From NCBI RefSeq assembly GCF_058153355.1, contig NZ_CM177019.1: DNA of 64,000 nt; one strand, written 5' to 3'. Numbering within the stretch: position 1 is the first letter of the stretch; each line of letters begins with the position of its first letter. The position numbers and the translations under genes are program-made. The notes beneath the pieces are model-generated. The model was given only the letters and a program-made list of their open reading frames with translations, did not search any database and was not told where the DNA came from. Below are positions 13,805-51,406 of the stretch, piece after piece.

Positions 13805-15112
<1,308 letters not shown>

Positions 15113-27633: not shown

Positions 27634-27713
27634 GCCACTGCTTTTCTTTGATGTCCCCATTTTGTGGAGCCCATCAACCCCGCCATTTTGGTTCAAGGTT
27701 GGTGGGTTTTTTG
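27634..27713 (+). ncRNA. rybB: sigma-E-dependent small RNA RybB
   Basis: GCCACTGCTTTTCTTTGATGTCCCCATTTTGTGGAGCCCATCAACC...GGTTGGTGGGTTTTTT recognised as RybB, with its 3' hairpin and U-tail; between ybjL and rcdA as in K-12. Confidence 0.75.
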
Positions 27714-27731
27714 TTATCTAAAATTTATCTA

Positions 27732-46301: not shown

Positions 46302-48173
46302 TTATCTACGCATGAATGCGTATTCTGATTGTGGTTGTGCGACGTAATGCCCCGGCCCGACGCATTGCAACGAGACGGCTGCAACCTCTTCGCCACGCAG
46401 ATGAATATTGCTGGGAAGATCGTCCGACAGCAGTACACGCTGCGGTCGTTGTCGGGACGGTTCAGCGACCGGAACTGCCGCCAGTAATTTACGCGTATAA
46501 GGATGCTGCGGGTTTTCAAAGACCGCGCGCCGTGGACCAATTTCAACAATTTGTCCGAGATACATCACCGCCACACGATGACTAATCCGCTCTACCACGG
46601 CCATATCGTGGGAGATAAACAGATACGCAATGCCGAAATCACGCTGGAGATCGAGCAACAAGTTGATAATCTGCCCGCGAATAGAAACATCCAGCGCCGA
46701 GACGGCTTCGTCGGCAATGATCACTTTTGGATTCAATGCCAACGCGCGAGCAATGCAGATGCGCTGGCGCTGACCGCCGGAAAACTCATGCGGGTAACGC
46801 CAGGCATGTTCAGGTAACAGGCCCACGCGCTCCAGCAACCACGCAACGCGTGCAGCCGCTTCTTTACCTGGCAATAAACCGTGTACGCGCAGCGGTTCGA
46901 TAATCGAATCACCGATGGTCTGACGTGGGTCCAGCGAAGCGTAAGGGTCCTGAAAAATAAACTGAATATCGCGACGCAATGCCTGAAGTTTGCCGGGTGA
47001 CAAAGTATCGATTCGCTGACCGTTAAAGATAATTTCGCCGCCCTGCGATTCGACCAGGCGCAGCAACGCCCGCCCGGTAGTGGATTTACCGCTGCCAGAC
47101 TCGCCCACCAGCGATAGCGTTTCGCCAGGCCAGAGATCAAAACTGACTTTCTCAACGGCATGCACTTCCCGCGTTACGCGATTCAACAAACCGCTGCGCA
47201 AAGGGAAACGGGTGACCAGATTACGCACCCGTAAAACAGGTTCGCCATCCACCACCGTTTTCTGCTCGATGGGTGGTTCCTGTTTCGCTGGATGTTCAAG
47301 CGATATCAATGGGAAACGTCGGGGATAATCTAACCCTTTCATCGCACCAAGTTGCGGAACAGCAGCTAACAGCGCACGGGTGTAAGGATGTTGCGGTGCA
47401 TGAAAAATCTGTTCGACGCTACCCGTTTCCACCGCCTCGCCCTGATACATCACCAGTACCCGATCGGCAATCTCTGCCACCACGCCCATATCGTGAGTGA
47501 TAAAGATAACGCCCATCGACATCTCTTTTTGCAATACTTTGATTAATTGCAGGATCTGCGCCTGAATAGTGACATCCAGCGCGGTGGTTGGCTCATCGGC
47601 AATCAGCACCGCCGGACGGCATGACAACGCCATCGCAATCATCACTCGCTGGCGCATCCCGCCAGAGAGTTGATGCGGATAACGTGAAAGAATGGTTTGT
47701 GCCTCCGGAATGCGTACCTGATCCAGCATCCGCTTCGCCTCGACCATTGCTTCTTCACGACTGGCGTTTTGATGCAGACGAATTGATTCGGCAATCTGTT
47801 CACCCACAGTAAATACCGGGTTCAGCGATGTCATCGGCTCCTGAAATATCATCGCCATATCCGCACCGCGCACATGGCGCATTTGTGCAGCGCTCTGTTC
47901 GCTAAGTTCAATCACCTCACGACTGCGCCGCCGCAACAGCATTTGATCGCACGGCACTAAACCACCCGCCTGTTCCAACAGGCGCATCAATGCCAGCGCA
48001 GTCACTGACTTACCGGAGCCGGATTCGCCAACAATTGCCAGCGTCTCACCACGTTGTAGGCTAAAAGAGAGATTGCGGACCGCAGCTATTTTCTGCTGGT
48101 CCTGCCTAAAGGCAATATTCAGATTTTCAACCGCCAGCACATCACCGGCATCAAGTTCATCACTGTGTGGCAA
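46302..48173 (-). CDS. gsiA: glutathione ABC transporter ATP-binding protein GsiA (two ABC domains); start codon uncertain
   Basis: Two Walker A/signature sets; the codon aligning with the remembered K-12 N-terminus ([10 protein letters not shown]) is TTG at 48171-48173, the ORF also extends to a GTG at 48281; overlaps iaaA 3' end. Confidence 0.85.
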
Positions 48174-49125
48174 CGGTGTCCCCTTTTTCACGGTAGATAC
48201 CGGTGGTTGGCGTATCGCCTGCGTAGCCCCAGGCGCGATACATTCCTTCGGTGTTAAACGGTAGCGCGACGTTACCTTCATGGTCGATAGCGATTAAGCC
48301 ACCGCTACCGCCAAGCGCAGGGAGTTTTTCCATTACTACCCGCTCGCAGGCTTCCGCGAGACTTAATCCGCCGTAATCCATTAACGCGGCGATGTCATAT
48401 GCCGCCAGCGCGCGGATGAAGACTTCGCCCGTGCCGGTACAAGAAACCGCCACACTGGCGTTATTGGCGTAGCATCCGGCGCCCACTAAGGGACTATCGC
48501 CAACTCGTCCGGGTAATTTATTGGTCATTCCGCCCGTGGACGTGGCTGCCGCCAGATTGCCGTCTAAATCCAACGCCACGGCACCCACGGTGCCCATTTT
48601 CTGTTTTTCATCCAGTGGCGCACCGCTATGGTCGAGAACCGTTGCCCCTTCCTCGCGCGCTGCCAGGAGTTGTTCATAACGCAAAGGCGTGGAGAAAATC
48701 TCCGGCGAGACGCGCTCCATGCCATGAGCAAACGCAAAATTTTCTGCCCCTTCGCCAATCATCATCACATGCGGGCTTTGCTCCATCACCAGGCGGGCAG
48801 CAAGAACCGGATTACGCAGATGACTCACGCCCGCCACCGCACCGGCTTTCAGGGTGTTACCATCCATCACACAGGCGTCGAGTTCATGCGTTTCATCTCG
48901 CGTAAAGACTGCGCCAATTCCGGCGTTAAACAGTGGACACTCTTCCAGCAGACGCACCGCTTCCGTCACCACATCCAGCGCACTTTCGCCCGCTTCCAGC
49001 ATTTTCTGCCCGGTTTCAACAATGGCAGACAGCGCCTCGATGTAGCGTAATTCCTGTTGCAGACTAATCTGCGCGCGGCTAATTGCACCTGCGCCGCCAT
49101 GAATTGCAATGACTGCTTTGCCCAT
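48160..49125 (-). CDS. iaaA: isoaspartyl dipeptidase / L-asparaginase IaaA (Ntn hydrolase)
   Basis: 321 aa ORF recognised as IaaA; first gene of iaaA-gsiABCD cluster. Confidence 0.92.
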
Positions 49126-49328
49126 AGTATTCGTCCATTAAGGGTGGCTCGCCACTTTTGCTATAAATATCAGAATTTTTATGAATTACTCATTCAATTT
49201 TTGAATATAGAAAGATGGATATGGCATGTAAAGGCAGGAGCCAGCGCTACGCCCGAGGTGGCATACAGTCTGTGGCGTTTTTCTGACATAATAGGCAAAT
49301 TCGATTTTGCCTCCGCAGGAGTGTTTTC

Positions 49329-50564
49329 ATGGAATTTACCACCGGATTGATGTCGCTCGACACCGCGCTTAATGAGATGCTTTCTCGCGTTACCCCACTG
49401 ACCGCCCAGGAAACGCTGCCACTGGTACAGTGTTTTGGTCGTATTCTGGCGAGCGATGTCGTTTCGCCACTGGATGTCCCGGGGTTTGATAACTCCGCTA
49501 TGGACGGCTACGCGGTGCGTTTAGCCGATATTGCCTCCGGGCAACCGCTGCCCGTTGCCGGTAAATCCTTTGCCGGTCAGCCGTACCATGGTGAATGGCC
49601 TGCGGGTACCTGCATTCGTATTATGACCGGTGCGCCGGTGCCGGAAGGCTGCGAAGCGGTGGTGATGCAGGAACAGACCGAACAGACTGACGCTGGCGTG
49701 CGTTTTACTGCTGAAGTGCGTAGCGGGCAAAATATTCGCCGTCGCGGTGAAGATATCTCTGCGGGTGCGGTTGTTTTCCCAGCGGGAACACGCCTGACTA
49801 CCGCAGAGCTGCCAGTGATTGCTTCGCTGGGAATTGCCGACGTTCCGGTGATTCGTAAAGTGCGAGTAGCGCTGTTTTCCACCGGTGATGAACTCCAGTT
49901 GCCAGGCCAGCCGCTGGGCGACGGCCAAATCTACGATACCAACCGTCTCGCCGTGCACCTGATGTTAGAACAGCTGGGTTGCGAGGTAATCAACTTAGGG
50001 ATTATTCGCGACGATCCACACGCCCTGCGCGCCGCATTTATTGAAGCTGATAGCCAGGCAGATGTGGTGATCAGTTCCGGCGGTGTATCGGTTGGTGAAG
50101 CGGATTACACCAAAACCATTCTCGAAGAGCTGGGTGAAATCGCCTTCTGGAAGCTGGCGATTAAACCGGGTAAACCGTTCGCGTTCGGTAAACTCAGCAA
50201 TAGCTGGTTCTGCGGCCTGCCGGGTAATCCGGTTTCAGCAACGCTGACCTTCTATCAACTGGTACAGCCGTTATTGGCAAAATTGAGCGGCAACACCGCC
50301 AGCGGCCTGCCCGCGCGTCAGCGCGTACGCACGGCTTCTCGCCTCAAGAAAACGCCTGGTCGCCTTGATTTCCAACGTGGTGTGCTGCAACGCAATGCTG
50401 ACGGTGAACTGGAAGTCACCACCACCGGGCATCAGGGCTCACATATATTTAGCTCTTTTAGCCTCGGCAACTGCTTTATCGTACTGGAACGCGAGCGCGG
50501 CAATGTAGAAGCGGGCGAATGGGTGGAAGTAGAACCGTTTAACGCGTTATTCGGAGGCCTGTAA
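49329..50564 (+). CDS. moeA: molybdopterin molybdenumtransferase MoeA
   Basis: 411 aa ORF recognised as MoeA. Confidence 0.93.
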
Positions 50565-51325: not shown

Positions 51326-51406
51326 GGCCTGATAAGTCGCGACAAGCGTCGCATCAGGCATTTGCTCCAGACGCCAGATGCGGCGTGAACGCCTTATCTG
51401 GCCTAC
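51326..51406. repeat. REP/BIME palindromic units between moeB and fsaA
   Basis: AGGCCTGATAAGTCGCGACAAGCGTCGCATCAGGCA and GCCAGATGCGGCGTGAACGCCTTATCTGGCCTAC match REP consensus. Confidence 0.7.

Follow-up and report, generated by a model that had tools for sequence, protein, structure and literature searches.

Background

In Escherichia coli K-12 MG1655 (NC_000913.3), the isoaspartyl/beta-aspartyl peptidase gene iaaA (b0828, 866568..867533) is followed by gsiA (b0829, NP_415350.2, 867520..869391), which encodes the ATP-binding subunit of a glutathione ABC importer, in the gene order moeA / iaaA-gsiA-gsiB-gsiC-gsiD. The two coding sequences are annotated with an overlap of 14 nt, and the first codon of the gsiA coding sequence is TTG, preceded by an AAGGGG Shine-Dalgarno sequence. 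E. coli has three canonical start codons, of which TTG is one; about 3% of genes use it, and its output is roughly 10–100% of that of AUG (bioRxiv 10.1101/063800).

The arrangement resembles that of translationally coupled overlapping gene pairs in general, in which adjacent genes lie on the same strand and the Shine-Dalgarno sequence and start codon of the downstream gene are contained in the coding sequence of the upstream one. The iaaA/gsiA overlap differs from the commonest forms of such pairs in its length, 14 nt instead of 1 or 4 nt (ATGA, TGATG). A 1-nt overlap is found at the iaaA-gsiA junction of Cedecea and of 'Enterobacter' Ag1 and R1.

Organization of the locus

The window, the whole 64,000-nucleotide stretch of DNA that was analysed (contig NZ_CM177019.1 of NCBI RefSeq assembly GCF_058153355.1), shares with K-12 MG1655 the TTG start, the AAGGGG Shine-Dalgarno sequence, the 14-nt overlap and the gene order given above. 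Its context matches the K-12 region iaaA-gsiA-gsiB-gsiC-gsiD, with gsiA as the first transporter gene of the cluster. Both genes at the junction lie on the minus strand, and codons are cited below in their direction of reading where the higher coordinate is given first.

The iaaA gene, the counterpart of K-12 b0828, spans 48160..49125 (-) and consists of 321 codons, ending in a TGA stop at 48162..48160. Its product scores 712.4 bits against the NCBIfam equivalog NF007589 (cut-off 567), with residues 1–321 of 321 aligned. The gsiA coding sequence spans 46302..48173 (-), with 623 codons and a stop, and was assigned by its open reading frame, by profile and by identity to the K-12 gene. GsiA read from the TTG scores 1376.3 bits against the NCBIfam equivalog NF007613 (cut-off 1077), and residues 1–623 align with positions 1–623 of the 623-position profile. 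A search of the PDB found no solved structure of GsiA; the best relatives there are Rv1281c and DppD/OppD/OppF.

The overlap between the two genes covers 48160..48173 (-), 14 nt read in different frames, and is annotated likewise in K-12 and in strain Z0117EC0005. On the minus strand, the iaaA frame ends ...ATC TAC CGT GAA AAA GGG GAC ACC GTT GCC ACA CAG TGA, which puts the iaaA stop 11 nt downstream of the first TTG base.

The gsiA start codon and its Shine-Dalgarno sequence

The codon at 48171..48173 (-), read directly from the sequence, is TTG. It corresponds to the annotated start of K-12 b0829 at 867520 and occupies a conserved position. In the gsiA frame the junction reads, on the minus strand, ...GTG AAA AAG GGG ACA CCG TTG CCA CAC AGT GAT GAA CTT GAT GCC GGT, and the codons that follow the TTG encode PHSDELDAG. 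The Shine-Dalgarno sequence AAGGGG lies at 48180..48185 (-), 6 nt upstream of the TTG and within the iaaA coding sequence. The TTG together with a Shine-Dalgarno sequence at a 6-nt spacer agrees with a canonical initiation region, defined as ATG, GTG or TTG with a Shine-Dalgarno sequence 5–9 nt upstream. Duplex energies with the anti-Shine-Dalgarno sequence ACCUCCUUA are -7.8 kcal/mol for the TTG versus -3.0, -1.5 and -2.3 kcal/mol for the in-frame codons GTG 48191, ATG 48281 and GTG 48140, respectively.

The initial annotation had placed the TTG at 48171-48173 within the 3' end of iaaA, which the codon reading and the open reading frame coordinates bear out. It had also named a GTG at 48281 as the sole upstream in-frame start, with no ATG available; this was an error, since both the list of open reading frames and a walk along the codons give ATG at 48281..48279.

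The best explanation as a whole, to which we assign a probability of roughly 90%, is that translation of gsiA begins at the TTG at 48173..48171 (-), as is standard in E. coli. The AAGGGG sequence 6 nt upstream would guide the ribosome to the TTG on an iaaA-gsiABCD transcript by ordinary Shine-Dalgarno-directed initiation, and the TTG would be read as formyl-methionine, giving a GsiA of 623 residues.

Conservation of the start across Enterobacteriaceae

A scan of species-representative genomes for GsiA gave 80 related loci, in 71 of which a homologue of iaaA lies directly upstream of gsiA on the same strand. Twenty-six Enterobacteriaceae junctions, those of the window and three E. coli records among them, were compared on the basis of aligned N-termini. 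The position of the E. coli TTG is start-capable at every junction (TTG in 9, GTG in 11 and ATG in 6), and its last two bases, TG, are invariant. A Shine-Dalgarno sequence precedes the start in all 26, with energies from -5.5 to -12.6 kcal/mol, and AAGGGG or AAGGAG is conserved in relatives.

Residues 2–8 of GsiA (PHSDELD in the window; PHS-D/E-EL-D across genera) are conserved despite synonymous changes in the DNA. This conservation at the protein level implies that translation starts at or before residue 2. Additionally, in 8 of the 26 junctions the gsiA frame opens only 3–5 codons upstream of the conserved start, which makes longer forms of the protein impossible in those species. Enterobacter, Lelliottia, Leclercia and related genera have the same gsiA start position, a Shine-Dalgarno sequence (GGGGG or GGAG), the same operon order and the same PHS(D/E)EL(D) N-terminus; they differ in that the TAA stop of iaaA lies inside the Shine-Dalgarno sequence, a gap of 9–13 nt separates the genes, and the start is GTG or ATG.

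Alternative start sites

Upstream of the TTG, the gsiA frame is closed by a TAA at 48296..48294. Between the two lie an in-frame ATG at 48279..48281 (-) and an in-frame GTG at 48189..48191 (-), which would give proteins of 659 and 629 residues, respectively; both were rejected as starts. In a public protein collection, the 623-residue K-12 model is present on at least 1000 contigs versus 6 contigs for the 659-residue form and 3 for the 629-residue form. The longer models, from the ATG and the GTG, are rare annotation variants that over-extend the protein.

The longest-ORF model would start gsiA at the ATG (48281..48279) and read an open frame of 46302..48281 (-), adding an N-terminal extension of 36 residues encoded out of frame inside iaaA. 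No start codon in the open frame precedes this ATG, and the 659-residue protein does appear in public databases, on the 6 contigs noted above. However, the ATG has no Shine-Dalgarno sequence (-1.5 kcal/mol), E. albertii lacks a start codon at this position, and the gsiA frame of Enterobacter, Lelliottia, Cedecea, Siccibacter and others is interrupted by a stop 3–5 codons ahead of the conserved start. Moreover, the TTG position marks the beginning of the NCBIfam GsiA profile and is the start in the curated K-12 gsiA model; both argue against the 659-residue form. We regard initiation at this ATG as highly improbable.

Initiation at the GTG at 48191..48189, located six codons before the TTG, would give the 629-residue protein and is also very unlikely. 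This codon is start-capable, in frame and near the conserved N-terminus, and the corresponding model exists on 3 contigs, but no Shine-Dalgarno sequence lies within range of it (-3.0 kcal/mol). Its position is occupied by GCG in E. coli SCPM-O-B-8794, which belongs to a divergent lineage, and in E. albertii, and at junctions of the Enterobacter type a stop in the gsiA frame separates the equivalent of this GTG from gsiA.

A start downstream of the TTG, at the GTG at 48140..48138 (codon 12), would turn the preceding residues into an untranslated leader. A GTG at codon 12 of gsiA is common in relatives, and the alignment of the ABC domain with solved homologues begins near GsiA residue 11. Against this stand the weak Shine-Dalgarno sequence of the GTG (-2.3 kcal/mol), the inclusion of the residues preceding codon 12 in the NCBIfam GsiA equivalog profile, and the preservation of residues 2–8 (PHS-D/E-EL-D) as protein across genera, where the underlying changes are synonymous (cca/ccg, agt/agc, ctt/ctg/ctc). 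Such a start is scarcely credible.

The TTG start in K-12 and in the E. coli population

Alignment to K-12 gsiA, proposed with the initial annotation as a check, revealed the identical TTG arrangement with an annotated start. The window, K-12 MG1655 and the closest strain, Z0117EC0005, share the same sequence over 127 nt around the junction. Given this identity and the start-capable codon in 26 of 26 aligned junctions, the TTG is not a coincidental match. Across 601 nt, identity of the window is about 97.3% with K-12-type strains and 99.8% with Z0117EC0005. The GsiA proteins of the window and K-12 are 98.4% identical (residues 1–623) and the IaaA proteins 98.8%; allelic differences in GsiA downstream of the start are Asp11 in the window versus Asn11 in K-12, and Arg23 versus Met23. 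In all the E. coli records that were inspected, Z0117EC0005 and 23CRST011 among them, RefSeq places the start at this TTG.

Of 5426 complete E. coli genomes, 5425 contain the 601-nt region. A 90-nt segment at the junction is exactly identical in 5075 complete genomes, and a 22-nt core, comprising the Shine-Dalgarno sequence, the spacer, the TTG and 7 nt beyond it, is found exactly in 5233. When a 53-nt query was used whose positions 26–28 are the TTG, so that every 28-nt megablast seed must cover it, 5422 of the 5425 genomes matched; in the remaining three the TTG is intact and flanked by two SNPs (GACGCCG TTG CCACAT AG). Every complete E. coli genome with the locus, 5425 of 5425, thus retains the codon. 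The spacer variant ACC to GCC occurs in 65 genomes, plus the three double variants. The change of CAC to CAT, found in one genome plus the same three double variants, is silent in gsiA but ends iaaA earlier, at a new TAG; for this variant RefSeq annotates an 11-nt iaaA/gsiA overlap with the TTG start unchanged.

The middle T of the TTG is the third position of an iaaA valine codon (GTT), where a change would be silent for IaaA, and yet it never varies. Its invariance indicates selection on the gsiA start.

Because K-12 has the identical arrangement with an annotated start, the feature is ordinary: a TTG start overlapping iaaA is a normal, already annotated feature of E. coli. The suggestion of a rare TTG/GTG start overlapping iaaA holds for TTG, which is borne out by K-12, RefSeq and conservation. 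The other suggestion, that an ancestral ATG was replaced by TTG in this strain alone, perhaps lowering or abolishing GsiA expression, has nothing in its favor beyond the general rarity of TTG relative to ATG, and is refuted by the presence of the same codon in K-12, in all 5425 locus-bearing complete E. coli genomes, in E. albertii and in two Citrobacter species.

Published start-site data

In the INRI-seq data (Table S2 of PMC9825163), the gsiA start at 867520 has a peak of 0 in five of five replicates, by a method that confirms only about 70% of annotated starts. The Ribo-RET data from the same source likewise give a peak of 0 at 867520, by a method that confirms only about 18% of annotated starts. 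The iaaA gene is also negative in the INRI-seq/Ribo-RET data (PMC9825163). The missing peaks are weak negative evidence against the TTG start. Within the accessible portion of the TRAINSPOTTER N-terminomics supplement, the N-terminus of IaaA is among the entries and gsiA is not. A literature search on the gsiA start codon, on TTG or on translational coupling returned nothing relevant and no direct experimental confirmation of the N-terminus. The predicted TTG start of gsiA rests on curated annotation and comparative evidence, which we judge to be strong.

Origin of the overlap

In Enterobacter, Lelliottia, Leclercia, Phytobacter, Superficieibacter, Pseudocitrobacter and Siccibacter, IaaA has ...IYRE at its C-terminus, and a TAA stop follows. 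The stop in those seven genera belongs to a Shine-Dalgarno sequence, TAAGG(G/A)G, and gsiA begins 9–13 nt past the TAA. In the junction alignment, the codon that aligns with this stop in the window is AAA, encoding Lys314 of IaaA (48184..48186, -). The aligned codon is AAA in both Escherichia and Citrobacter, where IaaA is eight residues longer (KGDTVATQ) and terminates at a TGA inside gsiA.

An ancestral TAA stop of iaaA, located within a TAAGGGGG Shine-Dalgarno sequence, may have changed to AAA in Escherichia and Citrobacter, which would have extended IaaA into gsiA. As judged from the sequence comparison, the overlap would be most simply explained by this lineage-specific loss of the iaaA stop, with the gsiA start itself unmoved. 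Superficieibacter and Pseudocitrobacter combine a TTG start with a TAA stop of iaaA; the use of TTG is therefore independent of the overlap.

Possible coupling of gsiA to iaaA translation

The layout of a coupled pair is present at this junction, in that the gsiA Shine-Dalgarno sequence and start codon lie inside the end of iaaA on the same strand; co-transcription was assumed from the K-12 operon. The genes ybiK (iaaA)-yliABCD have been described as an operon for glutathione use under CysB regulation, which fits such co-transcription. A sigma-70-like promoter match (TTTACA, 17-nt spacer, TATATT) is located at 49204..49232 (-), upstream of iaaA in the intergenic region between iaaA and moeA. 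It is the sole match in 47900-49400 and, judged on consensus only, is not significant by itself (1 found versus 1.4 expected from shuffled sequences). No sigma-70-like promoter was found inside iaaA, and no terminator-like site was found on the coding strand at the iaaA-gsiA junction.

From the location of the gsiA initiation signals inside iaaA and the weaker TTG start, we infer that GsiA synthesis is plausibly, and probably, coupled to the translation of iaaA. Ribosomes finishing iaaA would reinitiate at gsiA or prevent the site from folding. As a structural basis for coupling, a conserved RNA hairpin that masks the Shine-Dalgarno sequence and start codon is not supported: RNAalifold on 21 junctions gave -1.18 kcal/mol with no covarying pair. 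The local fold around the E. coli gsiA start is not unusual (z = -1.27).

The absence of an INRI-seq peak on an isolated fragment from -30 to about +150 is compatible with coupling and is not diagnostic of it. In a stronger form of coupling, the synthesis of GsiA in Escherichia and Citrobacter would depend entirely on ribosomes finishing iaaA, and the change of TAA to AAA would have brought the Shine-Dalgarno sequence and weak TTG of gsiA within iaaA, tying the output of the transporter to that of the peptidase. We hold this stronger form to be possible and rather doubtful. If GsiA were wholly dependent on iaaA ribosomes, this would explain why the isolated gsiA region gave no INRI-seq signal in vitro.

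Implications

The 623-residue GsiA model that begins at the TTG is the right one for the window, and the value of the result is one of annotation. The TTG start says nothing special about the strain and matters little in that respect. As a minor point on evolution, loss of the iaaA stop would have turned a short intergenic gap into the 14-nt overlap in the Escherichia/Citrobacter lineage.

Origin of the iaaA–gsiA overlap

The gsiA gene is encoded on the minus strand and begins with TTG (48173–48171) within the 3′ end of iaaA (49125–48160). The iaaA stop region was compared near position 1985 in loci L007, L009, L011–L016, L019 and L027, which belong to the set of related genomes compared at this junction. 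In the alignment, Escherichia and Citrobacter have a lysine codon, AAA (window 48184–48186, minus strand), at the position where Enterobacter-type genomes have the iaaA stop codon TAA, and their IaaA carries an additional eight-residue tail, KGDTVATQ. The change from TAA to AAA thus accounts for both the lengthening of IaaA by 8 residues and the conversion of a 9–13 nt gap into the 14-nt overlap with gsiA.

The same-strand pairing of iaaA and gsiA reaches well outside the enterobacteria. An iaaA homologue lies immediately 5′ of gsiA in 71 of 80 related loci, many of them from Betaproteobacteria. The non-enterobacterial loci (L041–L082; Achromobacter, Bordetella, Paraburkholderia, Variovorax, Cupriavidus and others) differ from the window in that a gap generally separates the two genes, and in the GsiA N-terminus.

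For the gsiA start annotated in K-12 (867520, which corresponds to window 48173), published initiation-site maps contain no peak, either in vitro by INRI-seq or in vivo by Ribo-RET (PMC9825163 Supplementary Table S2). In the same data iaaA is likewise negative, and INRI-seq gives positive results for gsiB, gsiC and gsiD.

Variation among E. coli genomes

A CAC to CAT substitution at gsiA codon 3, found in 4 of 5425 E. coli genomes, is silent in gsiA and gives iaaA a TAG one codon earlier, so that IaaA is shorter by one residue and the overlap is reduced to 11 nt. The allele is present in E. coli 23CRST011 (locus L083, 263–273), NZ_CP021726.1 and NZ_CP146250.1, and as a single-SNP allele in NZ_CP195973.1. 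Between the gsiA Shine-Dalgarno sequence and the TTG, an ACC to GCC variant (68 genomes) corresponds to IaaA T317A.

One complete E. coli genome has no match to the locus, and five matching places fall on E. coli records labelled as plasmids. In strain 'ExPEC' from mussels (NZ_CM172609.1, hit H143), the matched gene bears only the label 'ATP-binding cassette domain-containing protein', not gsiA, and may be disrupted.

RNA elements and lineage of the window

Rfam matches exceeding the gathering score elsewhere in the window comprise the sRNA RybB (27637–27715, plus strand, 104.8 bits) and two minus-strand naRNA4 (CssrE) elements (15028–15108 and 51326–51403), one of which directly follows moeB.

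Identity to the window over positions 47900–48500 (601 nt) is 99% or higher in just 10 complete E. coli genomes out of 5425; the closest is the dog isolate Z0117EC0005 (99.8%), with the majority at approximately 97.3%. GsiA of the window has Arg23 and Asp11, compared to Met23 and Asn11 in K-12. This scarcity of close genomes, together with the two GsiA residues, indicates that the window belongs to a sparsely sampled E. coli lineage.
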